From an uncultured Candidatus Saccharibacteria bacterium (lineage in GTDB: Bacteria; Patescibacteriota; Minisyncoccia; Phycocordibacterales; UBA6899), in the NCBI GenBank assembly GCA_964469335.1, contig CAYXYK010000005.1:1-56327 (forward strand): 56,327 bases of DNA, in the 5' to 3' direction. Both the position numbers and the translations under genes were made by a program. Below, one piece after another: positions 2,381 through 50,479 of this stretch (position 1 is the stretch's first letter; each line of letters begins with the position of its first letter). The notes under the pieces are model-generated. The model had not been told where the DNA came from, ran no database searches, and saw nothing but the letters and a program-made list of their open reading frames with translations.

Positions 2381-2397
2381 GAAAGTGGAGGTGATTC

Positions 2398-2482
2398 GGT
2401 CACGAGTCACTAATTCGCACTGCTCATAAGTGCTCGCGACCCCGACTCGGCACCTCGCAAAGCCTCGGTAGTGCCTCCGTCT
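2398..2482 (-). repeat. Structured repeat (GGTCGC...GTGACC family), copy downstream of tRNA-Ser
   Basis: Minus strand AGACGGAG...GAGTCGGGGTCGCGAGCACTTA...TAGTGACTCGTGACC, similar to copies at 22885, 45851, 48203 and 50252. Confidence 0.75.
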
Positions 2483-2549
2483 TTCGAATCTCTCCTCCTC
2501 ATCGTAATGGCAAATCAAAAAGACGCCTTCGCGTCCTTTTGAGCCATTG

Positions 2550-2636
2550 CGGAGGAGGAGAGATTCGAACTCTCGATGCCCTTTCGGACATGCCACCTTT
2601 CCAAGGTGGTGGAATAAACCGCTATCCGACTCCTCC
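2550..2636 (-). tRNA. tRNA-Ser(GGA)
   Basis: GGAGGAG acceptor, anticodon arm CCACC-TTGGAAA-GGTGG, long variable arm, GTTCGAATC T-loop, G discriminator, no encoded CCA. Confidence 0.97.
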
Positions 2637-2735
2637 GTGCTTCGAAAATATACCAAATAATGCCGTAAATGCACAGGTTTCCAAAAGGTGCGTATCTTTG
2701 TGTACTTTACTTCACATTCTTCTATAATGGATTCC

Positions 2736-3947
2736 ATGTCTATATTCGCTTCTGTCGGTCATGCGGCGGGCGGGAACCCCGCAGCAGTCGGAGCCGACGC
2801 ATATCAAAATGCCCTAAAGGGGCTGGGTGACCAAAGGCCCACACTCGCATTCGTGTTCTCGTCGGTCGCGTACGAGCAAGAAACCATGCTCAAAGGGGTG
2901 CAGTCTGTCGCAGGCTCAGTCCCGATCGTCGGTTGTTCGACTGCCGGAGAGATTGTCACAGACGGTCCACTTGAGACCTCGTCAGTCGCCATCATGCTCC
3001 TCGCTGCTACTCCGGAATCACTCACCGCAACGATCGGTATCGGGAACAATGCCAAAAATGACGAACGAAAGGCAGGGCAGAGTGCTGCACAGGAGGTTGT
3101 GAATCTTGTCGGAGGCAAAGAGAAGTTACGCGGCTTCATTATGCTTGCGGATGGTCTCGCGGGAAACGGTGCTGAGATCGTGCGTGGTGTACTCGACGTG
3201 CTTGGTGATCATTTTCCGGTCGTCGGTGGCTCTGCCGGTGACGATTTCAAATTCAAACAGACCTATCAGTACGGCAAGGGTTCCGTGCATACCGGTGATG
3301 TCGTCGGAGTGGGCCTTTCCGGTGACTTCGCATTCGGTATCGGCGTGAAGCATGGATGGGGAGTTCTCGGTGTCCCTTCCCGTGTCACCAGATCGAACGG
3401 GCACATCGTTCATGAGATCGACGGCAAGCCGGCAATGCAGCTTTACGAGAAATACTTCGGAGATCGCGCAAAGTCGATCAAAGAAGAGGTACTTGCGACA
3501 CTCGCCGTGTCATACCCGCTTGGAGTGAAAACCCCGGGCAGCGAAGAAGATTATCTCATTCGTGATCCGATGTTTGTCGACGAGAATGGTTCGATCACCT
3601 GCGCAGCTGAGATACCAGAAGGCTCAGAGGTTCGTATCATGATGGGGACGCGCGAAAGTGCGATCACCATGGCTACTCAGGCTGCCGAAAATGCCCGCAT
3701 TCAGCTCGGCGGGAAAACCCCGAAAGCGATACTGATCTTCAACTGCATCGCTCGCAAGAAACTGCTTGGCATGCGCGGAGGAGAGGAGATCGACGCGATC
3801 CGCAGCATCCTCGGACGCGACGTCCCCCTCATCGGTTTCTATACATATGGTGAACAGGCTCCTATCAACGGAGAGAGCCGCAACATCGAACGCTGCAATA
3901 CGGTGTTTCATAACGAGACTGTTGTCATCTACGTCATCGCAGAATAG
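2736..3947 (+). CDS. FIST N/C domain signal-transduction protein
   Basis: VGCSTAGEI, VVGGSAGDD, FNCIAR and IGFYTYGEQ motifs; start chosen 7 nt after TATAAT (2723-2728), alternative ATG at 2727. Confidence 0.9.
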   Translation: MSIFASVGHAAGGNPAAVGADAYQNALKGLGDQRPTLAFVFSSVAYEQETMLKGVQSVAGSVPIVGCSTAGEIVTDGPLETSSVAIMLLAATPESLTATIGIGNNAKNDERKAGQSAAQEVVNLVGGKEKLRGFIMLADGLAGNGAEIVRGVLDVLGDHFPVVGGSAGDDFKFKQTYQYGKGSVHTGDVVGVGLSGDFAFGIGVKHGWGVLGVPSRVTRSNGHIVHEIDGKPAMQLYEKYFGDRAKSIKEEVLATLAVSYPLGVKTPGSEEDYLIRDPMFVDENGSITCAAEIPEGSEVRIMMGTRESAITMATQAAENARIQLGGKTPKAILIFNCIARKKLLGMRGGEEIDAIRSILGRDVPLIGFYTYGEQAPINGESRNIERCNTVFHNETVVIYVIAE

Positions 3948-3992
3948 GTCGTCAAGCTTTTTCCTGGACCTCGCTATTGATATACTACGCGA

Positions 3993-4475
3993 ATGCTCTA
4001 CTTCGACGGCATCACCACTCCGCTCGGCAGACTCCATATTGTCGTATCCGACGAGGCGATCGTCCGTATCTACTTTCCTGGGGAAAAATGGACCGAGCGA
4101 TACGAGCGTACTCCGAAGCATGAACTCATCGTGCTCGCGAAGACACAGCTCGCGGAATACTTCGCCGGCGAACGCCGCAAGTTCGATCTTCCGCTCCTCT
4201 TGCAGGGTTCTGAGTTCCAGATCAAAGTGTGGAAGACCATTGCAAAGATCCCATACGGCAAGACCATTACCTATGCCGACGAAGCGAAGAAAATGAGGAA
4301 GCCTGACGCGGTCCGCGCAGTCGGAACCGCGAACGGCAAGAACCCGATTCCGATTATCATCCCATGTCACCGCATCATCCCGAAGGGTGGGGGACTCGGC
4401 GGTTACTCGGGTGGTGTCAGCCGCAAGAAACTCCTCCTCAAACTCGAGCAGCATTATTTGGGGATAAAAAAGTAG
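3993..4475 (+). CDS. ogt: Methylated-DNA--protein-cysteine methyltransferase
   Basis: GSEFQ..VW, IPYGKTITY, RAVGTANGKNP and the PCHR active site. Confidence 0.95.
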   Translation: MLYFDGITTPLGRLHIVVSDEAIVRIYFPGEKWTERYERTPKHELIVLAKTQLAEYFAGERRKFDLPLLLQGSEFQIKVWKTIAKIPYGKTITYADEAKKMRKPDAVRAVGTANGKNPIPIIIPCHRIIPKGGGLGGYSGGVSRKKLLLKLEQHYLGIKK

Positions 4476-4495
4476 TTTTAGATTTTATCTAGCAG

Positions 4496-4521
4496 AAAAC
4501 AGCTCTGTTGAGCAGTTTTTT
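4496..4521 (+). terminator. Terminator after ogt
   Basis: AAAAC-AGCTC-tgtt-GAGC-A-GTTTTTT imperfect hairpin with T tract. Confidence 0.55.
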
Positions 4522-4535
4522 ATTACTCCATAATA

Positions 4536-4564
4536 TTGACAAGTTGGCCATTATGTACTAGTAT
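4536..4564 (+). promoter_or_regulatory. Sigma70 promoter of the three-gene accessory operon
   Basis: TTGACA-17 nt-TAGTAT. Confidence 0.75.
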
Positions 4565-4677
4565 GCCTGCCGGTAGCTCATCACATCTTGTGAAAGGAAA
4601 AACGTAAGTAACGTGAAGTGAATAATGAGTTTTCTCTGGTCCGCAACGGGTATTATGCCCAGAAAGGAAGAACGCAG

Positions 4678-5583: not shown

Positions 5584-5601
5584 CCCAAAGGAGAAGCACA
5601 C

Positions 5602-5874: not shown

Positions 5875-5900
5875 TCTTCCACCCACGAAAGGAAACCCCC

Positions 5901-6962: not shown

Positions 6963-6987
6963 GCCTTTCACAAGAAGCACATTCCGC

Positions 6988-8910: not shown

Positions 8911-9834
8911 ATGACCGCCGCATTAGCGATAAAGGGACTCAAGAAGACCTACGCCTCGGGTACCGTCGCACTGAAAGGGGTAGATCTCACCATCCCAAAA
9001 GGGGATTTCTTCGCGTTGCTTGGTCCGAATGGCGCCGGAAAATCGACACTCATCAACATCGTCTGCGGGCTCGTGAACAAGACTGATGGCACGGTGTACA
9101 TCGATGGACTCTCGATCGACGACAATGCACCGAAGGCGAAGATGCACGTCGGAGTAGTTCCGCAGGAATTCAACTTTGGCATCTTCGAGAAGATCATCGA
9201 CATCGTCGTGAATCAGGCGGGTTATTACGGTATTCCGAGGAAGGTGGCGATACCTCGTGCCGAGCATTACCTGAAGCAGCTTGGTCTATGGGAGAAACGT
9301 AACAATAAAGCGATGGAGCTTTCAGGTGGGATGAAGCGCCGTCTCATGATCGCTCGTGCGCTGGTGCATGATCCCGAGCTCCTGATCCTCGACGAGCCGA
9401 CCACGGGTGTCGATATCGAGCTTCGGCGTGGGATGTGGGAGTTCCTCACTGAGCTCAACAAGAGTGGTGTCACTATCATCCTCACCACGCACTATCTCGA
9501 GGAGGCCGAGCAGCTTTGCCGCAATGTCGCGATCATCAGTGGCGGTAGCATCGTTGCGGAAGGGGAGATCAAGAAGCTCCTCGCCAACATGGACGATGAG
9601 ACTTTCGTGTTCGATCTCGACAAGGACCCCGATGAGAAGCTCATTGCAGCGTTCAAGTCACATGCTGCGCACCGGCCACGCGAATCATCCCTCGAACTCA
9701 CGCTCACCAAGGCATACCCTCTGAACTCTGCGGTGCTCGAGCTGAACCGAGAGGGATATCACGTTCTGAGTCTCCGTAACAAGACCAACCGCCTCGAGGA
9801 ATTCTTCGTTAAACATACCAACAAGTCTGTATGA
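8911..9834 (+). CDS. ABC transporter ATP-binding protein (YadG-like)
   Basis: Walker A GPNGAGKS, signature LSGGMKRR, Walker B LLILDEP, H-loop TTHY. Confidence 0.93.
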   Translation: MTAALAIKGLKKTYASGTVALKGVDLTIPKGDFFALLGPNGAGKSTLINIVCGLVNKTDGTVYIDGLSIDDNAPKAKMHVGVVPQEFNFGIFEKIIDIVVNQAGYYGIPRKVAIPRAEHYLKQLGLWEKRNNKAMELSGGMKRRLMIARALVHDPELLILDEPTTGVDIELRRGMWEFLTELNKSGVTIILTTHYLEEAEQLCRNVAIISGGSIVAEGEIKKLLANMDDETFVFDLDKDPDEKLIAAFKSHAAHRPRESSLELTLTKAYPLNSAVLELNREGYHVLSLRNKTNRLEEFFVKHTNKSV

Positions 9835-10604
9835 ACCCATCACAAATGTGGACAAGCTACTACACCATCGTACGTAAAGAAGTCGTGCGACTCTTTCGTA
9901 TCTGGTCACAGACCTTTCTCCCGCCGGTGATCACCACCTCCCTCTACTTTCTGATCTTCGGGAAGTTTATCGGAAGCCAGATCGAGCCGATAGGGGATGT
10001 CACCTACATGCAGTTCATCGTCCCCGGTCTGGTGATGATGTCGGTGATCATGCAGTCATTCATGAACTCGGCGTTCACGTTCTACATGGCGAAGTTCCAG
10101 AAGACCCTTGAAGAGGTCGCCGTGTCGCCTACGCCGTATCTTATTGTGATACTCGGACATGTATCTGCTGCGGTCATCCGCGGAATGATCACCGCAGGGA
10201 TCATCCTCGGTGTTGCGCTGTTCTTCACTCCGATCCACGTCCACTCGTATCTCCTTACTGTCGTGTTCATCTTCCTTTCCGCGCTGCTGTTCGCCCTTGC
10301 TGGGCTCATCAATGGCGTGTTCGCCAACTCGTTCGATACCGTACAGATCTTCCCGACCTTCGTACTCACTCCGCTGACGTATCTTGGTGGCGTCTTCTAT
10401 TCGGTGCACCTCCTCCCGCCTATTTGGCAAACGATCTCCTACGCTAACCCGATCGTCTATATGATCAATGGCTTCCGGTACGGCCTCCTCGGTGTCAGCG
10501 ACACCAGTGTTTGGACCTCGTTCTCCGTATTGGTGGCTTTGGTGTTCGTGATGGTGTTTGCGAATTGGTATGTGTTCAAAACTGGCCGCGGCCTTAGGGC
10601 ATAA
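9831..10604 (+). CDS. ABC-2 type permease (YadH-like)
   Basis: RIWSQT.LPPVIT..LYF.IFG, YMQFIVPGL and LTPLTYLGGVFYS motifs; overlaps the ATPase stop. Confidence 0.93.
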   Translation: MNPSQMWTSYYTIVRKEVVRLFRIWSQTFLPPVITTSLYFLIFGKFIGSQIEPIGDVTYMQFIVPGLVMMSVIMQSFMNSAFTFYMAKFQKTLEEVAVSPTPYLIVILGHVSAAVIRGMITAGIILGVALFFTPIHVHSYLLTVVFIFLSALLFALAGLINGVFANSFDTVQIFPTFVLTPLTYLGGVFYSVHLLPPIWQTISYANPIVYMINGFRYGLLGVSDTSVWTSFSVLVALVFVMVFANWYVFKTGRGLRA

Positions 10605-10780
10605 TTCAACTTGAGCGACCTGCTCGTCATTCCTTCGGCAAGTCGAGTCACCATAGATGACTATGGCTTCTCGACATTACCTCAGTCCATGACTTCGCAT
10701 TTCTTCTCAATTTGAATCATGCCGTAATTGCAAGCGATATGAATCTCGCATTAGAAGATTCGCAGGTGTAGAATTATTCC

Positions 10781-11570: not shown

Positions 11571-11740
11571 CCAATTTTGCCCACCGCGCAAAGCGTCGGC
11601 GGCTGCAAAATTGAGGATGTCTTAAATCGCCATGTCGAGGCGATTTAAGACCCCCCCAGATTTTTCTCATTGCGCAAAGCGCAATGGTGAAAAATTGAGG
11701 ACTTCCGAAATTGCTATTGCAGAGCAATTTCGGAAGCTCA
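11571..11740. repeat. Double-hairpin repeat, family B copies 2 and 3 in tandem
   Basis: Units at 11571 and ~11658, each with a CAATTTT..AAAATTGAGG hairpin plus a second hairpin. Confidence 0.85.
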
Positions 11741-11816
11741 TTTTTTTTTGAATACTTCTGAAATTACCACAAGGCGACTTTCCTTTCGTTACCATACCCT
11801 GCTACAGTATGTTCCA

Positions 11817-12566
11817 ATGATCATGGATGCATCTGTGAATATACTCCAACTTAACATCGAGCGAGACACACATCTCGCACTCGTAGAAAACCTGCTGCGC
11901 GACAGAACCCCTGATATTGTGACCATGCAAGAAGTGTTCAGTGATGATGTCACTCGGCTTGAGTCGTGCGGCGACTATGCTTCCGCTTTTGTGTCGCTCA
12001 TGACGGATTTTCGTCCCGAATCCGGAGCAGTGAAGAAAGAGGGTTTGCTCATCATGTGGAACAAGCGTTTTTCGCTCGAGAAGAAAGAGGTGAACTTATA
12101 CTACAGTGATCCGAGGGCACATGAAGTACCGACCGGCATGCGTTCATCAAACGAAAGGGAACGCGCGCTCCTCACTGTTGTGCTCACCGAAGGCGAAAAG
12201 ACCTATCGGGTTAGTACCACACATTTCACTCGTACTCCCGATGCGCGTGTCGATGATCTGCAGCGTGCGCATTTTCGCATCATGTCGGGGCTCCTTTCCA
12301 GATACGATGATGCCCACGGTGTGATCCTGACCGGAGACTTCAATACCCCGAGAGGGGACGAATTGTACGACACTCTTGCCGCGACCTATTGTGACAATAT
12401 TCCTCCTGAGGTCGCCACGACTCTCGACCAGCGCCTCCATCGTGTGAACGGTCTCATGTACGTCGTCGACGGACTGTTCACGACGCCGAACTACAGCGTG
12501 AGTGACGTCGAAGTGATTGACGGAGTTAGTGACCACAAGGCGATCGTCGCAAAGATCACTTCGTGA
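11817..12566 (+). CDS. Endonuclease/exonuclease/phosphatase family protein
   Basis: QLNIE, DIVTMQEV, TTHF, ILTGDFN, VDGLF and SDH motifs. Confidence 0.9.
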   Translation: MIMDASVNILQLNIERDTHLALVENLLRDRTPDIVTMQEVFSDDVTRLESCGDYASAFVSLMTDFRPESGAVKKEGLLIMWNKRFSLEKKEVNLYYSDPRAHEVPTGMRSSNERERALLTVVLTEGEKTYRVSTTHFTRTPDARVDDLQRAHFRIMSGLLSRYDDAHGVILTGDFNTPRGDELYDTLAATYCDNIPPEVATTLDQRLHRVNGLMYVVDGLFTTPNYSVSDVEVIDGVSDHKAIVAKITS

Positions 12567-12602
12567 GAAATACGGAAAGTTGTACACAGATTGTCCACGT
12601 TC

Positions 12603-12689
12603 CCAATTTTGCCCACCACGCAAAGCGATGGTGGCTGCAAAATTGAGGACTTCTGAAATCGTCACGAGAAGACGATTTCAGAAGCTCCA
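12603..12689. repeat. Double-hairpin repeat, family B copy 4
   Basis: CCAATTTTGCCCACC..GGTGGCTGCAAAATTGAGGAC then TTCTGAAATCGTC..GACGATTTCAGAA-GCTCC. Confidence 0.85.
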
Positions 12690-12785
12690 AGTATCCACAT
12701 CTTATCCACGTAAAAAATAGGAGCAGGAGGTACAGGTTGTTACAATTATGACAAGCAAACGTTACCGCGTTGCGCGATTCTTTCC

Positions 12786-14789
12786 ATGAGTGACCAAGTG
12801 AGGAAAATCACCATCAATCTGCGTTCGGCTGTGAAAAAACACCCCGAAGCTGCTCCTGTGCACCATGAAGTAAAAGCGCCTCAACATCCTCCTCACGCTG
12901 AGGAGGAGAAAGTCCTCCCCGTGAAAAAAGCGGACAAGCCGCACGTGCGCGTACTCACTGCCCGTCATGCCGAAGAGAAGTCGATCCCGCTCGAAGTGGC
13001 TAAGACGCATCAGACCGCCGCGTCTCCCGTGGTACCCGTCACCCAGCATGCTGAGGCGTTGGTCCCATCAAAAATGGTGGTACCGAAGAAACCGACCCAG
13101 CTTGAGGGCGTCTCAATCGGAGCACTCTCGATCGGCTATTTTTGTATGGAAATGGGACTCGAGAGCGATGTCCCGACCTATGCGGGCGGCCTCGGCATCC
13201 TTGCTGGTGACATGATGAAAAGCTGCGCCGATCTCGACGTCCCCGTCGTCGGAGTCACCCTCTTGTACCGCAAGGGCTATTTCAAACAACGATTCGACCA
13301 CAGCGGCTGGCAGTTCGAAGAAGATGAGTTTTGGGATCCGCGAGAGCATCTGATCCCGCTCGCAAAGGAAGTCGTCGTCGAACTTGAAGGCCGAAGGGTC
13401 CACGTGCGCGCATGGATGTACAAACTCTCCGGAGCGCGAGGGAGAGTGAATCCGATTCTCTTCCTCGATACCGATATCGAAGGCAATAGCGACGACGACC
13501 GTCATCTCACTGACCGGCTCTATACCGGTGACTCGCGCTATCGACTGCTGCAGGAGGCGATCCTCGGCATCGCCGGAGTCCGGATGCTCATCGCTCTTGG
13601 TGCGACGAATATCCAGAAGTTCCACATGAACGAAGGGCATTCGGCGCTACTCACCATTGAACTCTATCGCCAGTATGCTTCCTGCGCTGAGCCGATCGAA
13701 GAGGTCCGCCGTCGTACGGTGTTCACCACCCATACGCCGGTCGCCGCAGGGCACGACATCTTCGGGCAAGACCTCGCACTCTCGGTTCTGGGTGTGCACT
13801 TCGTTCCGTCCGCTATCGAAAGTATCGTCTTCCGGAGTGGGGTCCTGCATATGACCGAACTTGCGATGCATTTCGCGGGATTCATCAACGGAGTCGCGAA
13901 ACGTCACGGAGAAGTGACTCGTCAGCTTTTCCCGGGCTACTCGATCGAATCCATCACCAACGGTGTCTATGCGGCAGGTTGGGTCGGCCCGGGCATGGCA
14001 CGCCTCTACGATCATTACCTTCCCGGCTGGAAGACCGATCCGTATTCACTTCGCTATGCGCTTTCCATTCCTACCGAAGATCTCTGGCAGGGGCACATGG
14101 ATGACAAGCGTGCGCTCATCAAGTACGTCAACGAGACGCACAATGCAGAGATGGACCCCGACGTCTTCACCATCGGTTTCGCTCGTCGTGCGACCGAGTA
14201 CAAGCGCGGCAACATGTTGTTCGCTGACGTCGAACGACTCGCGCGCATTGCAGAGAAGTCGAAGGGAATACAGATCATCTATGCCGGCAAGGCACACCCT
14301 GCAGACAACAACGGCAAACTGCTCATCCAGGAGATCATGCGCAACATGGAGCGTCTCGGTAGTAAGGTACGGTGCATCTATCTCACCAACTACGACATGA
14401 AGATGGCGAAGCGGCTGGTCGCCGGTGTCGACCTGTGGCTCAACACTCCGACGAGGCCGCAGGAAGCATCAGGAACATCAGGGATGAAGGCAGCATGTAA
14501 CGGCGTGCCACAATTCTCCATCCTCGATGGTTGGTGGATCGAAGGACACATCGAGGGAGTGACCGGCTATTCGATCGGTGCGCATCCGGAAGAAGGTGAG
14601 CGCCCGAATGCCAACTACGAGGATATCGAGGACATGTACCGCAAGCTCGAATATGTCATCCTTCCGCGTTTCGAGAACGAGCATGATCGTTGGGTCAAGA
14701 TGATGCGACAGGCGATCGCGGTGAACGGGTCGTTCTTCAATACTCATCGCATGGTCGAACAGTACGTCCTCGGGGCATATTTCAAATGA
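12786..14789 (+). CDS. glgP: Alpha-glucan (glycogen/maltodextrin) phosphorylase, GT35
   Basis: YFCMEMG, YAGGLGILAGD, HMNEGH, FTTHTPV, ITNGV, GFARRATEYKR and EASGTSGMKA (PLP lysine) motifs; ~115-aa low-complexity N-terminal extension, start uncertain. Confidence 0.95.
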   Translation: MSDQVRKITINLRSAVKKHPEAAPVHHEVKAPQHPPHAEEEKVLPVKKADKPHVRVLTARHAEEKSIPLEVAKTHQTAASPVVPVTQHAEALVPSKMVVPKKPTQLEGVSIGALSIGYFCMEMGLESDVPTYAGGLGILAGDMMKSCADLDVPVVGVTLLYRKGYFKQRFDHSGWQFEEDEFWDPREHLIPLAKEVVVELEGRRVHVRAWMYKLSGARGRVNPILFLDTDIEGNSDDDRHLTDRLYTGDSRYRLLQEAILGIAGVRMLIALGATNIQKFHMNEGHSALLTIELYRQYASCAEPIEEVRRRTVFTTHTPVAAGHDIFGQDLALSVLGVHFVPSAIESIVFRSGVLHMTELAMHFAGFINGVAKRHGEVTRQLFPGYSIESITNGVYAAGWVGPGMARLYDHYLPGWKTDPYSLRYALSIPTEDLWQGHMDDKRALIKYVNETHNAEMDPDVFTIGFARRATEYKRGNMLFADVERLARIAEKSKGIQIIYAGKAHPADNNGKLLIQEIMRNMERLGSKVRCIYLTNYDMKMAKRLVAGVDLWLNTPTRPQEASGTSGMKAACNGVPQFSILDGWWIEGHIEGVTGYSIGAHPEEGERPNANYEDIEDMYRKLEYVILPRFENEHDRWVKMMRQAIAVNGSFFNTHRMVEQYVLGAYFK

Positions 14790-14901
14790 TTTTGGGTCAT
14801 AGCATTGTTGCGTGCGTCACGAGTCGGCTCAATGTGCAGTCAGCACATCTCACCGACATCGTTCCTGCGCGCCTCGCTCTGACCTCAAAATAATTTGAAA
14901 T
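14779..14901. repeat. Long fold-back hairpin whose outer stem includes the glgP stop codon
   Basis: ATTTCAAATGATTTTGGGTCA pairs with TGACCTCAAAATAATTTGAAAT; inner stems GTCGG/CCGAC and ATGTGC/GCACAT. Confidence 0.8.
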
Positions 14902-14967
14902 AATATGTAAGTTTGCACTCGACGTCATTCCTCAGAATTTCAATAAAATATTTGCTATACTATATAT

Positions 14968-18883: not shown

Positions 18884-21190
18884 ATGTCGAGCGCATCCAC
18901 ATCGAGAGCTGCCAAGGCGGTTGTCGTAAAGGCGAAAGCCGGTTCAGTATTAAAGGAGGTTCGTAAGCGCGACGGTTCAGTCGCCCCGTTCGACAAGGAA
19001 CATATCAAGAGCGCAGTCCTCCGTGCGATGCTCGCATCAGGCGAAGGAGGGGAGAAGGACGCAGATGTCGTCACTCACGCTGTCGTCAGTGCGCTTGAGA
19101 AGATCGTGAAGGGTCGCAAGGGCTATATCCCGAGCGTCGAAGAGATCCAGGACACCGCAGAAGCGGAACTCATCTACAAGAATTTCGCAAAGACCGCGAA
19201 GGGTTACATCATCTATCGCGAAGAGCACAAGAAGATCCGCGAAGTCACCGGCATCGTCCCAGAGGCGATCAAGGAGCTCGCACGTGAGTCGAAGAAATAT
19301 TTCCGCAATTCACTCGCGGAGTTCGTCTACTACCGCTCGTACTCACGCTGGATCGATCACGAACAGCGCCGCGAGACCTGGATCGAGACCGTCGACAGAT
19401 ACATGAACTTCATGCGCGAGAATCTCGACAAGAAGCTCACCGAGAAGGAGTACGACGAAGTGCGCGAGGCGATCCTTCGCCACGACGTGATGCCATCGAT
19501 GCGCCTGATGTGGGGTGCAGGCCCGGCAGCAAGGAAGACCAACGTCGTCGCGTACAACTGCTCGTTCATCGCTCCGTCGAAGCTCCGCGATTTCGGCGAG
19601 ATCATGTATCTCTCGATGTGCGGTACCGGCGTCGGCTACTCGGTCGAGTCACTCACCGTGCAGCAGCTTCCGCAGATCAAGAAGCAGACCGGCAAGGCGC
19701 ACAAAGTGCATGTGGTCGGCGACTCCAAGGAAGGTTGGGCAGATGCCTACGTCACTGGACTTGAGGCATGGTTTAACGGCGAGGACATCAAATTCGACTA
19801 CTCACAGCTTAGGCCAGCTGGTGCGCGCCTCATGACCATGGGCGGCAAATCTTCAGGCCCGCAGCCACTTGTGAATCTCATCGACTTCACTCGCGAGAAG
19901 GTATTCAAGCGCCAGGGTCGCCGCCTCTCGAACCTCGATGTCCACGATATCGTCTGTAAAATAGGTGAAGTCGTAGTGTCCGGCGGCGTAAGGCGTAGCG
20001 CACTCATCTCACTCTCAGACCTCGACGATTACGAGATGCGCCATGCCAAGGACGGACAGTTCTACGTCACCGAGCCACAGCGCATGATGGCGAACAACTC
20101 GGCCGTCTACACCCATCGCCCGTCGACTGCAGAGTTCATGGACGAATGGATAAGTTTGATGAAGTCAGGCTCAGGCGAGCGCGGTATCTTCAATCGTGGT
20201 TCACTCGAGAAGCAGATCCCGGAGCGCCGCAAGAAGACCCTGATGAAGGGGATCGACACCTGTGGTACCAACCCGTGCGGTGAGATCATCTTGAAGAGTA
20301 AGCAGTTCTGCAACCTCACCGAAGTCGTCATTCGCGCAGAGGACACCAAGCACACCCTCTTGAAGAAGATGCGCCTCGCAGCCATCCTCGGTACCTACCA
20401 GTCGACCCTCACCAACTTCAAGTATCTTTCGGCAGAGTGGAAGAAGAACTGTGAGGAAGAGCGCCTCCTTGGTGTCTCGATCACCGGCCAGTGGGACAAT
20501 CCGGAGCTCGTCCACGACCCGAAAGTCCTCGCAGACCTTCGCGACGAAGCAGTCGCCGTAAACAAGACCTATGCAAAGCGCTTCGGCATCAACCAGTCTG
20601 CAGCCGTCACCGCGGTCAAGCCTTCAGGCACTGTCTCGCAGCTCGTCGACGCATCAAGCGGTATGCACCCTCGCCACGCTCCGTACTACATCCGCCGCAT
20701 CCGCATCAGCGCCTCGGACGCACTCTTCAAGATGCTCCGCGATCAGGGCATTCCGTTCGCACCCGAAGTCGGACAGAGCGCAGAGAACGCCGTCACTTAC
20801 GTGATCGACTTCCCGGTCAAGTCTCCGAACCAAGCGGTCGTGAAGGATGACATCACCGCACTCGAGCAGCTCGTCCACTGGAAGCTCATCAAAGAGAATT
20901 ACACCGAGCACAATCCGTCCGTGACGATTTCGGTAGGGGAGAACGAATGGCTCGCCGTCGCATCATGGCTGTATGAGAACTGGGACATGGTGGGAGGACT
21001 TTCATTCCTGCCTCGCTCGGAGCACGTCTACCAGCTCGCGCCGTATGAGGAGATCACCAAGGAGAAGTATGAGGATCTCGCAAAAAGATGGGAGGATATC
21101 GATTTCTCGAAGATCGTGAGTTACGAGAAGCTGGATGAGACGCAGGGGGCGAAAGAGCTAGCCTGTGTCTCCGGCGTCTGCGAAATCTAG
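18884..21190 (+). CDS. nrdJ: Class II (adenosylcobalamin-dependent, monomeric RTPR-type) ribonucleotide reductase with N-terminal ATP cone
   Basis: ATP cone VRKRDG...FD..I, PSMRLMW.AG, GGVRRSALISLS, TNPCGEI, CNLTEV, AVKPSGTVSQL and C-terminal CVSGVCEI. Confidence 0.93.
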   Translation: MSSASTSRAAKAVVVKAKAGSVLKEVRKRDGSVAPFDKEHIKSAVLRAMLASGEGGEKDADVVTHAVVSALEKIVKGRKGYIPSVEEIQDTAEAELIYKNFAKTAKGYIIYREEHKKIREVTGIVPEAIKELARESKKYFRNSLAEFVYYRSYSRWIDHEQRRETWIETVDRYMNFMRENLDKKLTEKEYDEVREAILRHDVMPSMRLMWGAGPAARKTNVVAYNCSFIAPSKLRDFGEIMYLSMCGTGVGYSVESLTVQQLPQIKKQTGKAHKVHVVGDSKEGWADAYVTGLEAWFNGEDIKFDYSQLRPAGARLMTMGGKSSGPQPLVNLIDFTREKVFKRQGRRLSNLDVHDIVCKIGEVVVSGGVRRSALISLSDLDDYEMRHAKDGQFYVTEPQRMMANNSAVYTHRPSTAEFMDEWISLMKSGSGERGIFNRGSLEKQIPERRKKTLMKGIDTCGTNPCGEIILKSKQFCNLTEVVIRAEDTKHTLLKKMRLAAILGTYQSTLTNFKYLSAEWKKNCEEERLLGVSITGQWDNPELVHDPKVLADLRDEAVAVNKTYAKRFGINQSAAVTAVKPSGTVSQLVDASSGMHPRHAPYYIRRIRISASDALFKMLRDQGIPFAPEVGQSAENAVTYVIDFPVKSPNQAVVKDDITALEQLVHWKLIKENYTEHNPSVTISVGENEWLAVASWLYENWDMVGGLSFLPRSEHVYQLAPYEEITKEKYEDLAKRWEDIDFSKIVSYEKLDETQGAKELACVSGVCEI

Positions 21191-21311
21191 CCCATTTTCA
21201 GCGCATTACTTTGTCGCAATAAAGCGGCGACCCCATCACGGTACGAGAGTACCGCTCAGGGGTACGCCGCTTTTTGCTTCGCGTACTGCATCTGAAAATG
21301 GGCTAGATTTC
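21182..21311. repeat. Hairpin element A flanked by a perfect 20-bp inverted repeat that includes the nrdJ stop
   Basis: GAAATCTAGCCCATTTTCAG (21182-21201) and CTGAAAATGGGCTAGATTTC (21292-21311); core shared with 44400-44488. Confidence 0.88.
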
Positions 21312-37660: not shown

Positions 37661-37669
37661 CCATTTGCC

Positions 37670-38007
37670 CTGCATTGGGCAGTCGCCGTCGATCTATAAC
37701 ATCGACGGAGGAAAGTCTGAACTCCCACTCTGTATAAGAGTTAAGAGGGTAGTGGGCAATTCCCATCGTCCGCAAGGATAGAGGTGCGAGCAGAGACGCT
37801 TCAGACGAAAGAACGAAGCATCCGTCGCAAGGTGGATGAGTCCTCATGGCAACATGAGGGGTGAAACGGCTAAATCCTTACTCGGGTGCAAGGCCGTGCC
37901 TTCCGCAAGGAGGGAGTGCCGCTTGAGCGTGTCGGTAACGATGCGCCTAGATAAATGACTGCACAGGATGCGTAAGTATCCGGACAGAATTCGGCTTATA
38001 GATGCAG
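37670..38007 (+). ncRNA. rnpB: RNase P RNA
   Basis: GAGGAAAGTC, GGTGAAACGG, ACAGAATTCGGCTTAT P4 motifs; P1 CTGCAT/ATGCAG. Confidence 0.96.
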
Positions 38008-38279
38008 AGCGCATGAAAGAACCACCCAAAAGGTGGTTCTTTCTCGATATTTTTTATCACGAAAACATGATGGTTGGCATCATCTCAGATTTATTGTGAA
38101 ATTTATGAATTGTGCACATTTTTCACACGATTTCATCCCGTACACATGTTATACTCTATGGGCTAAAACTCTTTTGGAGGAAGAGCGATATTTGCAAACG
38201 CGTTCGTGGATGAGAATATTTTTTCGTTCACGCACGAGACTGCAGTGTTCGATTTATTATAGGTATTCAATAGTTATTT

Positions 38280-42582: not shown

Positions 42583-44385
42583 ATGGACCGGAAACACATA
42601 AGGAATTTCAGTATTATCGCCCATATTGACCACGGAAAATCGACCCTCGCGGATCGGCTTCTTGAGATCACCCACACCATCGAAAAGCGCAAGATGCAGG
42701 AGCAAGTACTCGACTCGATGGAGCTCGAGCGCGAGCGCGGTATCACTATTAAGATGCAGCCGGTACGGATGAGCTACAAGAAAGGGGATGAAGAGTACCT
42801 GATCAACCTGATCGACACCCCGGGGCATATCGATTTTTCCTACGAAGTCTCTCGTGCGCTGAACGCGGTCGAAGGAACACTGCTCTTGGTGGATTCGACT
42901 CAGGGCGTGCAGGCACAGACGCTCACCACGCTCCAGATGGCGCGAGAGCATGGCCTCACCATCATCCCAGTACTCTCGAAGATCGATTCACCGCTCGCGC
43001 GCGTGGACGAAGTGCGGGACGAGATCGTCTCGCTCCTCAAAGTGGATCCGAGCGAAGTGATGCTTGTCTCCGGACGTACCGGCGAAGGAGTCCCAGAGTT
43101 GCTTGACGAGATAGTGAGGCGCATTCCTCCACCATCTGAGGAATTTGCCGGCACCAAGAGTGCCCGCGCGCTTATTTTCGATTTTTCATACTCCAACCAC
43201 CGTGGTGTCATCCTTTATGTGCGCGTGCTCGACGGAAGTGTGAAGAAAGGAAGTGAACTCATCTTCCTCGGCGCAAAAGAGAAGTTCTTTGCGGTCGAGG
43301 TGGGATATTTCGCCCCCGCACAGACCGAGAAGAACGAACTCATGGCAGGAGAGATCGGATACATCGTCTCCGGGATCAAACGTCCGGGAGTCGCGGGTGT
43401 TGGTGATACGGTCACCGTGTTCAAAGAGCAGCTACCAGCTCTTCCCGGCTATGCAAAGCCAAGGCCGGTGGTATGGGCTTCGGTCTTTCCGGAGAGTCAG
43501 GATGATCTTTCGATGTTGCGCCAAGCACTTGAGCGATTGCAGCTTTCGGATTCATCGCTGACGTTCGAAGAGGAGGCATCCGGAAATCTCGGCCGCGGAT
43601 TCCGTTGCGGTTTTCTCGGTATGCTCCATCTTGAGATCATCACTGAACGATTGAAACGCGAATTCGATCTCGAGCTCGTCGTCACCACTCCGACTATCAC
43701 GTATGAAATTACCCACAAACAGACCAAGGAGGTCGACATCATCTACTCTCCCGCGCTCTTTCCCGATGATGCGTTCATCGCATCAGTCCGTGAGCCATGG
43801 ATCGATGGAGAGATCATTCTCCCGCCCGATTACGTCGGTCCGGTCAATCAGCTCCTGTACGAACATGAAGCTGAGTCCGGCAATACCGACATCTTCGGAG
43901 AGAATCGTTTCAAGGTGGAGTTCAAGATGCCGCTACGAGAACTCATGCGTGGATTCTTCGATAAGCTGAAATCGGTTTCATCCGGTTTCGCGAGTCTCTC
44001 GTATGAGCTCGGCGGGTTTCGAGACGCCGAAGTAACCCGTATGGACATTCTCGTGAATGATGAGCCGGTGTCCGCATTCTCTCGCGTCGTATCCAAACGC
44101 CGCGCACAGGAGGAAGGGGAGGCAGCAGTGAAGAAACTCGCCAAGGCGATGCCTCGTCAGATGATCGTCGTGAAGATGCAGGCAAAAGTGATGGGCAAGA
44201 TCATCTCCTCAGAACGCCTCTCTGCACTCAAAAAGGACGTCACTGGATATCTCTATGGAGGAGACATCACCCGCAAAATGAAGCTGCGCGAGAAGCAAAA
44301 GAAAGGAAAGAAGAAGATGCAGGAGATGGGGAATGTGAATATTCCGCAGGATGTGTTTGTCGCCATGATCCGCCCCGATGAATAA
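42583..44385 (+). CDS. lepA: Translation elongation factor 4 (LepA)
   Basis: IRNFSIIAHIDHGKSTLADRLL, ERERGITIK, DTPGHIDF, GFRCGFLGMLH and K.KLREKQK.GKKKM motifs. Confidence 0.98.
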   Translation: MDRKHIRNFSIIAHIDHGKSTLADRLLEITHTIEKRKMQEQVLDSMELERERGITIKMQPVRMSYKKGDEEYLINLIDTPGHIDFSYEVSRALNAVEGTLLLVDSTQGVQAQTLTTLQMAREHGLTIIPVLSKIDSPLARVDEVRDEIVSLLKVDPSEVMLVSGRTGEGVPELLDEIVRRIPPPSEEFAGTKSARALIFDFSYSNHRGVILYVRVLDGSVKKGSELIFLGAKEKFFAVEVGYFAPAQTEKNELMAGEIGYIVSGIKRPGVAGVGDTVTVFKEQLPALPGYAKPRPVVWASVFPESQDDLSMLRQALERLQLSDSSLTFEEEASGNLGRGFRCGFLGMLHLEIITERLKREFDLELVVTTPTITYEITHKQTKEVDIIYSPALFPDDAFIASVREPWIDGEIILPPDYVGPVNQLLYEHEAESGNTDIFGENRFKVEFKMPLRELMRGFFDKLKSVSSGFASLSYELGGFRDAEVTRMDILVNDEPVSAFSRVVSKRRAQEEGEAAVKKLAKAMPRQMIVVKMQAKVMGKIISSERLSALKKDVTGYLYGGDITRKMKLREKQKKGKKKMQEMGNVNIPQDVFVAMIRPDE

Positions 44386-44506
44386 CACAAGATTCTGACG
44401 CATTGCTTTGTCGCAATACGGCGGCGACCCCATCACAATACAGGAGTACTGCTCAGGGGTACGCCGCCTTTTGCTTCGCGCACTGCATTCATAATCTTTT
44501 GTTATT
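44381..44506. repeat. Hairpin element A, second copy, flanked by a 14-bp inverted repeat that includes the lepA stop
   Basis: AATAACACAAGATT (44381-44394) and AATCTTTTGTTATT (44493-44506); core similar to 21202-21291. Confidence 0.85.
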
Positions 44507-44559
44507 GGCGTGAGAAGGGTAGAAAGTAGTAAAAATATTGCTCGTTTTGGTACATATGA

Positions 44560-45645: not shown

Positions 45646-45719
45646 GCGAGATTAGTTTAGTGGCAGAACTAGTGCTTCCCAAGCATTGGGCGGGAGTTCG
45701 ATTCTCCCATCTCGCACCA
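45646..45719 (+). tRNA. tRNA-Gly(CCC)
   Basis: GCGAGAT/ATCTCGC acceptor, AGTGC-TTCCCAA-GCATT, GTTCGATTC, encoded CCA. Confidence 0.97.
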
Positions 45720-45850
45720 AAACAAAAACCGGCAGGGAAGCCGTTTTTTGTTTTGGTGCGAGAAGCAAAGTGCCTGCGCACTTTGCGTGGGAGAATCGAA
45801 GCCCTTCTCCGTTATTTGTGAAGAATTATTATTCTGAGCAAATCGGAAAG

Positions 45851-45902
45851 AGGTACTGAAGCTGTAAGCTTCGATTCCGCATTTGCTTAGTGACTTGTGA
45901 CC
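45851..45902 (+). repeat. Partial GTGACC-family copy
   Basis: GAAGC..GCTTC hairpin followed by CTTAGTGACTTGTGACC. Confidence 0.6.
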
Positions 45903-46723: not shown

Positions 46724-46724
46724 T

Positions 46725-47711: not shown

Positions 47712-47827
47712 CCTCGGTAACTTTGCGGTGCCATAGGGTCTATAGATCACCCTCTTTTTTAGTCGGTGGGGTGTGTGCTACAATAGCATCATCAAAGAGC
47801 ATAATTATCCGGTTAATTCTCATTACC

Positions 47828-48073
47828 ATGAAACCAGTCGCAATCTACACAACAGAGACATGCAGTTACTGCAAACTCGCAAAAGAGTTCTTCCAGAAGA
47901 ACAACGTTCAGTATCAGGAATTCAACGTCGGCACCGATCTTGAGAAACGTCAGGAAATGATCGAGAAGAGCGGACAGATGGGAGTCCCGGTCATCACCAT
48001 CGACGGAGAAGTTGTCGTCGGTTTCAATAAGCCTCGACTCCAAGAACTCCTCGGCGTTGTTGAGACAGCATAA
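47828..48073 (+). CDS. Glutaredoxin-like protein (NrdH/YruB family)
   Basis: YT..TCSYC and SGQMGVPVI.I.G..VVGF motifs. Confidence 0.92.
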   Translation: MKPVAIYTTETCSYCKLAKEFFQKNNVQYQEFNVGTDLEKRQEMIEKSGQMGVPVITIDGEVVVGFNKPRLQELLGVVETA

Positions 48074-48136
48074 AGTTGCATCGTTGTCTGCAAAGACCTA
48101 TTATGACAAAAGCTCACTCCGGTGAGTTTTTGTTTT

Positions 48137-48313
48137 GCCCCCATAGTTTAATGGATAGGAATCAATCGAGACTCAAAATGTGGAACATTTTGCGATTGAT
48201 TCGACCGGAGCTATGCCGAGGTATTACGAGGCGCGAGGTGGGGTCGCAAGCACTTAGTAGATGAGAAGCTTTGCTTCGAATATACTTAGTGACTAGTGAC
48301 CAGCTCCGTCCTA
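48137..48313 (+). pseudogene. Interrupted 5' half-copy of tRNA-Arg
   Basis: GCCCCCATAGTTTAATGGATAG (48137-48158), ~142-nt structured insert, then CAGCTCCGTCCTA (48301-48313). Confidence 0.7.
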
Positions 48314-48338
48314 GTGAAATGCATAAGTACGAAAATTT

Positions 48339-48413
48339 GCCCCTATAGTTCAATGGATAGAACAGCTCCGTCCTAAGGAGTAGATGTAGGTTCGATTCCC
48401 GCTGGGGGCACCA
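48339..48413 (+). tRNA. tRNA-Arg(CCT)
   Basis: GCCCCTA/TGGGGGC acceptor, GCTCC-GTCCTAA-GGAGT anticodon arm, encoded CCA; G32 and one T-stem mismatch. Confidence 0.9.
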
Positions 48414-48843
48414 TATGAAATAACAGCCTTTTGGCTGTTATTTCATATGGTGCCCCAAACAAGCAGACTACTCTGCTTCGTGCGGGAATCGAAAGGGTTT
48501 TCATTATCGAGTCATCGAGATTGAAAACCACCCGCGGCGGTTGCCGAGATTCCCGCTGGGGGCACAAGTCAGACACAAAACCTTCCCTGCGGAAGGTTTT
48601 GTGCTACTTGTGAGCCGCAGCGATGTTTCGCCAGCAGGCGAAACCGCGAGGTGGGGTCGCGGAAATCCCAGCGCGACGGCGATGGGATTATCCGTGACCC
48701 ATACTCCCAATGCCATACAATCTCTTTCGCTGTAGGTACGTTTTCCAGAGAGTCTCTTCGCGGAAATCCCAACGCGACGGTGAGAAAGTTATCCGTGACC
48801 AAGGTGACCCACATACACCACCTGCGGCGGTAGCCGAGATTCC
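48414..48843. repeat. Nested repeat cluster downstream of tRNA-Arg
   Basis: Inverted tRNA 3' copy (48448-48493), direct copy GATTCCCGCTGGGGGCAC (48548-48565), repeat pairs 48658/48759 and 48527/48817. Confidence 0.85.
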
Positions 48844-48913
48844 TCTCACATTGCTTCTTCCCGCGTTGAATGTATGATATCCGCAGTCCATCGTTATTTG
48901 AAAGGGGATTCAC

Positions 48914-49855
48914 GTGACCCAAAAAAGACCAGGCCTGCCTGCGGTCAGGACACAAGTTGCGGCATTCGGAACCTCCGTTTTTGCGCCATCTCAGGATGTG
49001 TTTGGGGAGAATGCGAGCGAATGGGCGAGACGAGTCCTCCTTCGCGTTCCCACTGGATCCGCTGTCGAGATGGCACTCTCCCTCGTCAGCCTCGTCGGTG
49101 TTCGCTATGTCCGCGAATTGCTTGCGCAAGCGATATTGATGAAGAAAATCGGTCGATGTGATCTCGAACAACTGTACCTCTCGCAGCGTGACGAAGTATT
49201 TGCCGAACTTCCACTCGTCACGCTCGAATTCCTTGCGTCGATCAACTCTGACGGAGTGCAGATCTTCACCCTCGAAGACCTGCACCAGCTCGAAGCGAAG
49301 CGACATGGGGACGTCGATACCATGCGGCACGTACCGTACGAGCGCGATCTGTCCTATTTCCTGTTCGATGAAGAGCGCCGCAGGACGGTATCCACGGAGG
49401 TCCTTACGCGCTGGGGTGACAACCTTCAAGGCCGTGACATGAACATGCTTGCTGTCATCGATGTCGAGCTGATAAAGAGAAAGGTCCGTAGGCTTTCCCA
49501 GGGCGACATCGGACACCGACTGAAAGTCGCTGCGAAGCAGGACCCGAAAGGGAACGCTGTGCGGGTCTATCTCGAGCTCCTGTTCTCAAGGTCCGCGAGA
49601 AAAGGAAGCGTCCGGTCTGAGGTCGTCAGTGTGCTGCTTGAGATGCTGTCGCCCGCAGAGCGGACCGGAAAGATCGATTTCACAGCGGCAAGCGAAGTCT
49701 TCAAGTTCTATGTCAACAACCCGCTCATCCCGCTCGAAGATCGTGAATGGGTCATCAGGGAGATCACCCAGTATTGCAACGCATTCGCCAGTCATTACCT
49801 GCGGTTCGTCGAAGAGGGCGTCAACGAGAACCCTTTTCGTACTAGGCGGTCGTGA
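48914..49855 (+). CDS. Hypothetical helical protein
   Basis: GTG start with SD GAAAGGGG; long open frame; terminator-like hairpin at 49874-49906. Confidence 0.7.
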   Translation: MTQKRPGLPAVRTQVAAFGTSVFAPSQDVFGENASEWARRVLLRVPTGSAVEMALSLVSLVGVRYVRELLAQAILMKKIGRCDLEQLYLSQRDEVFAELPLVTLEFLASINSDGVQIFTLEDLHQLEAKRHGDVDTMRHVPYERDLSYFLFDEERRRTVSTEVLTRWGDNLQGRDMNMLAVIDVELIKRKVRRLSQGDIGHRLKVAAKQDPKGNAVRVYLELLFSRSARKGSVRSEVVSVLLEMLSPAERTGKIDFTAASEVFKFYVNNPLIPLEDREWVIREITQYCNAFASHYLRFVEEGVNENPFRTRRS

Positions 49856-49920
49856 CCTATCCATGTGCGCTCGGAACGGTGGCTTTGTGTCACCGTTCTT
49901 TTTTTTGCTATAATCATCAT

Positions 49921-50211
49921 ATGACCGAACAATTCGACTATGACAAGATCGATGAGATACTCGACCTTACTCGCGAGAACAATCGTATCTTGCGCACCAT
50001 GCACCGAAGAATGCTGTGGAGCCAGATCTTCACCTTCATATACTGGCTGGTCATCCTTGGTATCGCCGGTTGGTCATATTATTTCTTGCAGCCGTATTTG
50101 ACCAAGTATCTCAATAGTTATGAGACGATCATGAACGCCCTTGATACCATGGATCAGGGTGGAAAAGCCTTGCCGTCGAATCTCCAGGGACTTCTCGATA
50201 AGGTGAGGTAA
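49921..50211 (+). CDS. Hypothetical single-TM protein
   Basis: L.RENN.ILR.MHR...W..I...YW..I pattern; ATG 6 nt after TATAAT. Confidence 0.8.
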   Translation: MTEQFDYDKIDEILDLTRENNRILRTMHRRMLWSQIFTFIYWLVILGIAGWSYYFLQPYLTKYLNSYETIMNALDTMDQGGKALPSNLQGLLDKVR

Positions 50212-50251
50212 AAAAGAAAAATCGCACGTTCGGCATTACCTCAATAGGGTT

Positions 50252-50330
50252 GGTTCAAGTTGCAAACTCGCTGAGCTCGTAAGTACTTGCGACCCGACTC
50301 GCCGCCTCGAAGACTCGGCATGCTCCGTCT
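50252..50330 (-). repeat. GTGACC-family copy downstream of tRNA-Phe
   Basis: Minus strand AGACGGAGCATGCCGAG...GAGTCGGGTCGCAAGTACTTA...CTTGAACC. Confidence 0.75.
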
Positions 50331-50403
50331 TTCAACCCTTTGTAAACTTTCAGTTTTCATCCTCGGCACCAAAAGAAAAAATCCCATATGGGATTTTTTC
50401 TTT

Positions 50404-50479
50404 TGGTGCCGAGGACCAGGGTTGAACTGGTGACCCCTCGCTCTTCAGGCGAATGCTCTACCAACTGAGCTACCTCGGC
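50404..50479 (-). tRNA. tRNA-Phe(GAA)
   Basis: GCCGAGG acceptor, TCGC-CTGAAGA-GCGA anticodon arm, GTTCAACC T-loop, encoded CCA. Confidence 0.97.

Follow-up and report, generated by a model that had tools for sequence, protein, structure and literature searches.

Small hairpin elements in an uncultured patescibacterium and the inverted copies of host gene 3' ends that may form their closing stems

In a stretch of 56,327 nucleotides (nt) of DNA from an uncultured Candidatus Saccharibacteria bacterium (contig CAYXYK010000005.1, hereafter the window), seven genes are followed by an inverted copy of their own 3' end: those for tRNA-Ser, tRNA-Gly, tRNA-Arg and tRNA-Phe, and the protein genes nrdJ, lepA and glgP. 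A first-pass annotation of the window had pointed out these mirrored ends, and all seven were found where it had placed them. The observation is correct and understated: the pattern is genome-wide and extends to at least 56 protein genes. In our interpretation, which we hold to have an even chance of being right, small and strongly folded elements without coding capacity have these mirrored ends as their closing stems, namely family A behind protein genes and modules of types 1, 2 and 3 behind tRNA and tmRNA (transfer-messenger RNA) genes. A fourth protein-gene copy in the window, the fixed length of the arms and the direct repetition of the tRNA end behind the module were absent from the first-pass annotation.

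The window corresponds to C5:1-56327 of a 1.28-Mb genome (G000) in 8 contigs, roughly 0.5% of which is taken by the elements. It was compared with 28 other genomes of the same family (29 with G000; labels G0xx) and with 32 other families of the order.

Results

Family A elements behind protein genes

Family A consists of a conserved hairpin core of ~90 nt and of closing arms that are specific to the locus. Of the 1210 greedy open reading frames (ORFs) of the genome, 24 have an exact inverted arm that is anchored at their stop codon and 12 nt or longer, against 0-3 in four controls, which upholds for protein genes the view that mirrored arms exceed chance. Stop-anchored repeats spaced about 90-110 nt have a common core. 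A search with nhmmer gave 32 copies of family A in the genome, and the alignment of 25 copies yielded a consensus fold of 36 base pairs, with compensatory changes in 29 of them. The covariance model, R1, detects 54 copies in this genome at E <= 0.01.

The placement of the copies is regular. Where a long ORF lies upstream, it sets their orientation, and the core starts 3-19 nt past the stop in 45 of 49 cases, so that the stop codon is usually in the left arm or at its edge. Replication strand was considered as the cause of the orientation and rejected: most copies follow the local majority gene direction, and at least one copy, at C3:142534, opposes the main direction of its contig. The 5' arm is T-rich and the 3' arm A-rich, with no T-run behind it, and the combination of a GC-rich stem-loop and a T-run that marks an intrinsic terminator is not found in family A. 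Canonical terminators stand behind the element in G010, G026 and G028; the sense transcript must therefore contain the element in these species.

The window holds four copies (Table 1). The identities of their host genes as class II ribonucleotide reductase (nrdJ), LepA, a glycogen-phosphorylase-like protein (glgP) and an ABC-2 permease were confirmed with Pfam. The nrdJ and lepA cores belong to a diverged subtype (A2) and are 89% identical to each other.

Closing arms of near-fixed length

Arm pairing was profiled in 63 elements from two genomes, with positions counted outward from the core. Ungapped pairing stays at ~0.65-0.8 up to position 15, drops to 0.51 at position 16 and 0.41 at position 17, and is at background (~0.25) from position 18; with gaps allowed, the median length is 17 and the range 14-21 for most copies. 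The length of the arms is thus near-fixed, at about 17-19 bp, and their outer edge is sharp. A loose consensus runs through the inner ~8 nt: ahead of the core it is AAATTTGG, a T-rich stretch with G(G/A) at its end, and behind the core CCAAATTT. The outer ~10 nt are locus-specific. Moreover, the right arm tracks the identity of the stop codon: the pairing partner is C in all 9 cases with TAG and T in 17 of the 19 with TAA. The outer arms are indeed, as had been supposed from the window, derived from the host, different at every locus and devoid of fixed terminal inverted repeats.

Mismatches in the arms are mostly of the non-wobble kind (G-T 12, A-C 24, other 90, including 49 instances of one recurring C-T pair). 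Neither the quality nor the length of the arms is correlated with a proxy for the age of the core (rho -0.04 and 0.15, respectively). In G004, whose cores are up to 97.6% identical, the arms are full-length yet unrelated and locus-specific; no armless or short-armed young copies were seen there, nor did inspection by eye reveal a consistent direct repeat outside the arms of 16 young G004 copies.

Changes within the arms can be compensated. In G026 and G028, the cores of the orthologous lepA elements are near-identical and the inner mismatches are common to both; the outer arms read TTAGACTT/AAGTCTAA and TTAAACTT/AAGTTTAA, a compensated change that took place after speciation. Similar paired arm changes distinguish the nrdJ sites of G000 and G019.

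Filled and empty orthologous sites

By model R1, each of the other 28 family genomes has between 2 and 48 copies, a span of 2-48 that is also reached within one genus. Among the 32 other families of the order, 5 genomes have 1-4 weak matches and 27 have none. For 19 of 22 gene ends that are filled here, 40 orthologous ends were found in three near relatives. A script scored 18 of these as filled and 22 as empty; on inspection by eye, two of those 22 look filled, with gaps, which gives about 20 of each. The filled sites have arms of about 13-20 nt spaced 89-99 nt apart, and no inverted repeat above control level occurs around the stop at the 22 sites scored empty. Empty sites thus have neither core nor arm and filled sites always have both, which fits the second mechanism suggested in the first-pass annotation, an insertion that copies its target in inverted form, or else template switching at the hairpin immediately upon insertion.

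At one of these gene ends (locus 18), the empty allele of G003 contains the host sequence TAATCTATTTTCAGG followed by the downstream flank; in G000 and G010, the core comes after the homologous ...CTATTTTGG, and behind the core the upstream flank is repeated in inverted form over 17-19 nt. It follows that the T-rich stretch preceding the core belongs to the host and that the right arm is new in its entirety. At four other gene ends (loci 6, 7, 8 and 16), different species have different cores at different offsets, always with matching arms; apparently, these are independent insertions.

The nrdJ end has a family A-type core directly past the stop in 15 of the 18 relatives fetched. The subtype of this core does not follow the similarity of nrdJ itself, and the right arm mirrors each species' own stop region. 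Outside the Lloydbacteria family no mirroring of the nrdJ stop was found: 5 of 80 loci scored at least 10, all of them records of the Lloydbacteria family, and the controls gave 0. The 3' flank of nrdJ in G019 (C46:14100-14440, L028) contains a tandem pair, in which an inner, younger element lies between the stop codon and the left arm of the older one; the older element agrees in its arms with the one of G012, and the junction has a repeated TTAA. The same architecture at orthologous sites of independently assembled genomes, with species-specific arms, excludes a fold-back artefact of assembly.

The lepA site is filled in about 15 of 27 species and empty in the others. In two genomes (G016 and G006; L154 and L156), an element lies ~40 nt after lepA in the opposite orientation, and its arms hold the stop codon of the convergent neighbour, so that the same rule is obeyed from the side of the convergent gene. 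At the empty lepA site of G003 (L145), TTTGTTATTG stands 5 nt past the stop, and in G000 the outer right arm is made of the identical 10-mer; an element since lost may have left it behind, or copying may be able to run from right to left.

Trailers of tRNA and tmRNA genes

An exact inverted copy of at least 10 nt, sought for the last 26 nt of each gene in the 300 nt downstream, is present at 23 of the 47 tRNA and tmRNA genes and absent from the upstream, reversed and shuffled controls. A hairpin followed by an inverted copy is present at the tRNA genes, as had been described; the trailers are more layered than that description. Their common order is the tRNA, a terminator hairpin, the antisense acceptor strand, a small conserved hairpin (AGCAAGYGC-CTGCG-GCRCTTGCGT), the antisense T-stem and loop, a module and a copy of the T-arm in sense orientation. 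The hairpin that comes first behind each tRNA is terminator-like and often a perfect palindrome that extends into the acceptor end. The antisense T-stem and loop stop exactly at TTCGAA, after which one of three module types follows, and the closing sense T-arm copy continues in some trailers through the acceptor strand. In the tRNA-Phe trailer, as read from the sequence, the inverted copy starts past the T-run of the terminator, and most tRNA transcripts there probably lack it.

The inverted copy lacks TGG wherever CCA is not encoded, which indicates that DNA or a precursor served as the template, and not the mature tRNA. The modules fold better on the tRNA strand, by a slight to clear margin. 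Some family A copies are also placed after ...TTCGA; the antisense T-loop may be just a preferred landing motif, with the right arm of the module mirroring whatever stands on the module's left, as in family A. Family A and the type-2 module have short motifs in common (GAAAGACG.AG and GAGCAGTGCG), which are not collinear.

Two further loci of G000 carry type-2 modules. At the tmRNA gene (C1:345700-345936, minus strand), a terminator, the antisense 3' end and a type-2 module follow each other as at the tRNA genes. An orphan type-2 module (C1:118290-118500, minus strand) has a 19-nt arm antisense to tRNA-His; it is preceded by a terminator after a tRNA-like 3' end (TCTGAACTCACCCCGATAGCGACCCA) and followed by a second antisense T-arm copy.

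Other features of the window

ARAGORN predicts four tRNA genes in the window. An Rfam scan of the window at gathering scores, together with permissive scans of four element regions, gave only tRNAs and RNase P RNA. Positions 11600-12690, an AT-richer stretch, contain three near-identical hairpins with 14-nt arms (CTTCYGAAATYGYC, 7-nt loop), each followed by CCTCAATTTT; they are a different repeated, terminator-like module.

Table 1. Coordinates of the elements and their tRNA hosts in the window, with RNase P RNA (strand: +, forward; -, reverse;., none assigned)
Feature	Coordinates	Strand	Basis and composition
tRNA-Ser(GGA), host gene, CCA not encoded	2549-2636	-	ARAGORN; Rfam tRNA
tRNA-Ser trailer	2483-2548	-	terminator-like hairpin 2501-2548, then inverted copy 2483-2500; 2552-2569 and 2483-2500 pair 18/18, the copy spanning T-loop, T-stem and acceptor 3' strand
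Type-2 module after tRNA-Ser	2385-2482	-	AGACGGAGG ... GAGTCGGGGTCGCGAG ... GTGACC, then short sense T-arm copy GAATCACCTCC; tRNA strand folds better (-49.9 vs -47.2)
Family A after ABC-2 permease gene (9831-10604)	about 10594-10727	.	nhmmer; R1 114 bits at 10605-10715; arms roughly 21 nt, core ~90 nt
Family A after glgP-like gene	14778-14902	.	R1 39.5 bits at 14785-14894; arms 14778-14794 / 14886-14902, 17 nt at 94%, TGA stop included
Family A (subtype A2) after nrdJ	21182-21311	.	core 21202-21291; arms 21182-21201 / 21292-21311 pair 20/20, over last two codons and TAG
RNase P RNA, bacterial class A	37667-38014	+	Rfam, 122.7 bits
Family A (subtype A2) after lepA	44380-44507	.	core 44399-44488; arms 16/19 (read from sequence), TAA included
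tRNA-Gly(CCC), host gene	45646-45719	+	ARAGORN
tRNA-Gly trailer	45710-45882	+	terminator palindrome 45710-45763 (24-nt arms 45710-45733 / 45740-45763), small conserved hairpin 45764-45787, antisense T-arm 45788-45800, type-1 module closed by sense T-arm copy
tRNA-Arg(CCT), host gene	48339-48413	+	ARAGORN
tRNA-Arg trailer	48405-48565	+	palindrome 48405-48456 (24-nt arms 48405-48428 / 48433-48456), small hairpin, antisense T-arm 48481-48492, type-3 module, 18-nt direct copy of tRNA 3' end 48548-48565
tRNA-Phe(GAA), host gene	50404-50479	-	ARAGORN
tRNA-Phe trailer	50236-50415	-	palindrome 50360-50415 (perfect 28-nt arms 50360-50387 / 50388-50415, zero spacer), small hairpin, antisense T-arm 50331-50338, type-2 module

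Discussion

A proposed insertion with an inverted copy of the flank

The explanation that we favor, although we would put it no higher than evenly balanced, is that these are non-autonomous hairpin elements whose insertion, or hairpin-primed fold-back synthesis straight after it, duplicates the upstream flank in inverted form, the pairing being maintained later. From the patterns described above we infer its biochemistry, the acting enzyme and any benefit to the cell. The core would come in as a self-folding single strand. Its hairpin would set the 3' end of the core beside the upstream flank and prime fold-back (template-switch) synthesis over a fixed distance, and the new strand would be joined to the downstream DNA, leaving an inverted instead of a direct target duplication. 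Selection, or more template switching, would then keep the arms paired. This rule may operate repeatedly at tRNA genes, at the terminator hairpin and then at a module landing after the antisense T-loop motif TTCGAA, which would produce the layered series of tRNA end, terminator, inverted copy, module and sense copy. The idea of fold-backs built repeatedly by one mechanism is supported in part; it may not hold for tRNA and protein genes alike, whose cores belong to different families and have their best folds on opposite strands relative to the host gene.

Template switching is known to give rise to hairpin arms and to preserve them (PMC8794818). Such quasi-palindrome mutation makes perfect inverted copies of the sequence next to a hairpin, and compensatory changes in a single step (PMC8794818); our elements resemble its products, and here too the new arm is the reverse complement of the adjacent sequence and the ancestral allele has no arm. 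In contrast, template-switch mutation is described as sporadic and not as the regular, fixed-length companion of a repeated element family.

Several observations weigh against insertion with inverted copying. The first concern the enzymes. The HUH-type Y1 transposase and reverse transcriptase genes, which the first-pass annotation proposed to look for, did not supply a mobilizer, and no enzyme tied to the elements was found in the searches for these two. Y1_Tnp has no match in this genome and none in G026, although Y1 transposase genes are present in 27 of the 28 relatives. The genes of the relatives are RAYT-like (REP-associated tyrosine transposase; REP, repetitive extragenic palindromic), encode 220-240 aa and have flanking inverted repeats of their own (e.g., GGGGACAG..CCCC) that differ from family A; no R1 match lies near them. 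Y1 transposase was accordingly rejected as the mobilizer. Reverse transcriptase (RVT_1) is found in only 12 of the 29 family genomes, all 29 of which carry family A, and a retron or another reverse-transcriptase-dependent element was rejected, given this patchy distribution. Autonomous parent elements were also sought, by a fuzzy search for paired end motifs, which returned overwhelmingly chance matches.

The second group of such observations concerns the strand. In 28 copies of family A, the strand antisense to the upstream gene folds better (mean minimum free energy -57.3 vs -44.7), and in G004 it does so without exception (16 of 16 copies; G-U pairs, 46 vs 7). By our own reasoning, this is not the strand that replication or transcription would be expected to expose. 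A scan of the 100 nt upstream of the antisense element start in 56 copies revealed no antisense promoter at a fixed distance, no position having a -10-like hexamer in 6 or more copies. The compensated arm change between G026 and G028 points to selection on the folded structure rather than to a purely mutational origin. Insertion with inverted copying gives no account of the bias toward the first 19 nt past the stop, of the strict orientation or of the choice of stop codons: the stops at the elements are TAA in 26 cases, TAG in 19 and TGA in 4, vs 471, 338 and 402 genome-wide (greedy ORFs), so that TGA is scarce (4 of 49 vs 33%) and TAG over-represented. Finally, the orphan type-2 module lies 27 kb from the tRNA-His gene (C1:145846-145922), and its own left flank is not mirrored.

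The asymmetry of the fold can be read differently. Two or so of the roughly three G-U pairs per element fall on two conserved positions; what the asymmetry reflects may thus be recognition, and it does not prove that an antisense RNA is made. Beside the glgP element there is a single promoter-like match, which is within chance expectation.

A bolder view, for which we see some room while leaning against it, is that the elements are an undescribed class of prokaryotic mobile elements, in which a fixed-length inverted target duplication of ~18 bp clamps each copy, by a self-made and locus-specific helix, to the 3' end of a host gene, be it the stop codon or the T-arm and acceptor strand of a tRNA, and that the clamp is useful, coupling the fold to translation termination or tRNA-end processing. 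A useful clamp would explain both the pairing kept after speciation and the stop codon that is nearly always within reach of the arm.

Alternative explanations

The elements could instead work in cis as RNA structures, located in tRNA trailers and in the untranslated regions at the 3' end of mRNAs, with a shared factor binding the core and selection keeping a closing helix that has to take in the 3' end of the gene. They may in that case serve 3' end protection, RNase III-type processing or the sensing of terminating ribosomes, which would melt the stem at the stop codon. The covariation of 29 of the 36 core pairs agrees with this, as do the compensatory arm change between G026 and G028 beside persisting conserved mismatches, the distance of at most 19 nt between stop codon and core in nearly all copies, the position of the element between stop and canonical terminator, hence in the sense RNA, in several species, and the filled nrdJ site in 15 of the 18 relatives. 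However, roughly one in two of the orthologous sites holds no element in near relatives, copies range from 2 to 48 within a genus, and core subtype and offset differ at one and the same site. The antisense strand is the better folder, unpaired segments of the sense strand are pyrimidine-rich, and the arm mismatches are mostly non-wobble. RNA roles such as those proposed on first reading of the window are as yet putative, the inverted copy at tRNA-Phe starting past the terminator T-run, and we consider this explanation unlikely.

In another scenario the cores would insert without arms, and the arms would grow gradually by replication template switching at strong hairpins in cells that lack palindrome-removing nucleases. 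The hairpin and palindrome nuclease SbcD (TIGR00619) is indeed absent from all 29 family genomes, with a control search positive in 13 of 14 well-known genomes, so that long palindromes could persist, under the favored explanation as well. The plain terminator hairpins behind tRNA genes are also extended to perfect 24-28-nt palindromes, and template switching can create and repair stems (PMC8794818). Gradual growth is nevertheless hard to reconcile with a tightly fixed arm length and its sharp edge, with arms whose quality and length are independent of core age, and with the full arms of the young G004 copies, and we regard it as quite improbable.

Folded single-stranded recombination sites are a third candidate. 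The attC sites of integrons and the attP hairpin of CTX-phi form imperfect palindromes, 60-140 nt long, that come right behind an ORF and in many cases overlap its stop codon; they fold on the strand opposite to the coding strand and carry asymmetric positions. Family A resembles them in its position at gene ends, in its opposite-strand fold and in its asymmetric positions. By this account a small circle carrying the target and its inverted copy would fold them into a mimic of the duplex target, and a site-specific recombinase would integrate it. A crossover within the tRNA end would give the order found at tRNA genes (tRNA end, terminator, inverted copy, module, direct copy), the copied block from the T-loop to the 3' end is the classical identity block of tRNA-targeting integrases, and conserved asymmetric positions give a strand-specific fold. 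On the other hand, each of more than 80 copies would need arms matched in advance to a different target, and young copies with near-identical cores have unrelated arms. No direct target repeat was seen by eye at the protein-gene copies, and no recombinase is linked to the elements; in particular no integron integrase is, although no search aimed at it was made. In attC the R''/L'' and L'/R' boxes at the stem base (RYYYAAC ... GTTRRRY) are conserved and the center is variable, whereas here the center is conserved and the base locus-specific, and the hosts are housekeeping genes and tRNAs, not cassettes. Such an origin appears very improbable.

Insertion into the center of pre-existing gene-end palindromes, in the way that IS1397 enters REP units and IS110/IS1111-type elements enter palindrome loops, would make the arms old host sequence and so account for flanks that are of host origin and different at each locus, yet it is largely refuted by the 22 sites scored empty, which have no inverted repeat above control, and by nrdJ ends that are not palindromic outside the family, and it has hardly any chance of being correct.

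Relation to known elements

The claim that no named system has this signature held up: none matched, and we could not match the footprint to any described family of mobile elements or RNAs. A search of the literature returned no description of such elements or of an inverted target duplication as an insertion footprint, and recent preprints on non-coding RNA mention neither Patescibacteria or the candidate phyla radiation (CPR) nor stop codons or palindromes.

In genomic behavior there is a likeness to REP units, bacterial interspersed mosaic elements (BIMEs) and REPINs, which are mobilized by RAYT and are short, abundant, non-coding intergenic hairpins, mostly just past genes and strand-specific; their copy number varies between relatives, the same slots hold different versions in related species, and RAYT-like genes are common in this clade. 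However, REP units are palindromes of 20-40 nt that are conserved throughout and do not copy the end of the neighboring gene, whereas the conserved part of family A is a ~90-nt core and the 17-19 bp that close it are host-derived. Nor does a conserved palindrome of the family also flank a RAYT gene in the same genome, as it does in REPIN-RAYT systems.

In IS200/IS605 elements, the cleavage site is set by a few base pairs that form between an internal guide and the flank. With these and with palindrome-associated transposable elements (PATEs), their ORF-less derivatives, family A appears to share single-strand hairpins, insertion 3' of a short motif and the lack of a direct target duplication. 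The guide-flank pairing of IS200/IS605 is 4-5 nt inside a fixed element; here 17-19 nt of flank are mirrored anew at each site, and orientation follows the neighboring gene, including in at least one copy, at C3:142534, against the main gene direction of the contig. PATEs have subterminal hairpins that a Y1 transposase recognizes, and insert 3' of a fixed tetra- or pentanucleotide. In family A a strand-specific hairpin and a loose target motif are present; a cognate transposase is not linked, and separate hairpins for the left and right ends are lacking.

The MITEs (miniature inverted-repeat transposable elements), such as Correia, ERIC and RUP, are comparable in size and in being non-coding, intergenic and capable of folding back. 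Terminal inverted repeats common to the whole family and a direct duplication of the target mark the MITEs; neither is found here: the only shared terminal sequence is the loose consensus of the inner ~8 nt, which is host sequence, the outer ~10 nt being locus-specific, and the duplication is inverted.

The RtT repeats of the E. coli tyrT operon (RF00391) are folded repeats behind a tRNA gene that include copies of the tRNA 3' end. The trailers described here are similar in both respects; RtT contains direct copies only, and its model, like those of the other Rfam families, is unmatched in three regions, tRNA or family A, that were scanned at permissive thresholds.

Implications

In textbooks, transposition is recognized by the direct duplication of its target. 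If a duplication is regularly inverted and of fixed length, another joining chemistry would be indicated, for instance hairpin-primed copying or an unknown enzyme, and this would give a simple way to recognize such elements in other genomes. In the uncultured Patescibacteria/CPR group gene regulation is almost unknown, and since the elements sit on the ends of housekeeping genes and of about half of the tRNA genes, they likely have an effect on how 3' ends form, on the expression of operons or on the stability of the genome in these bacteria.

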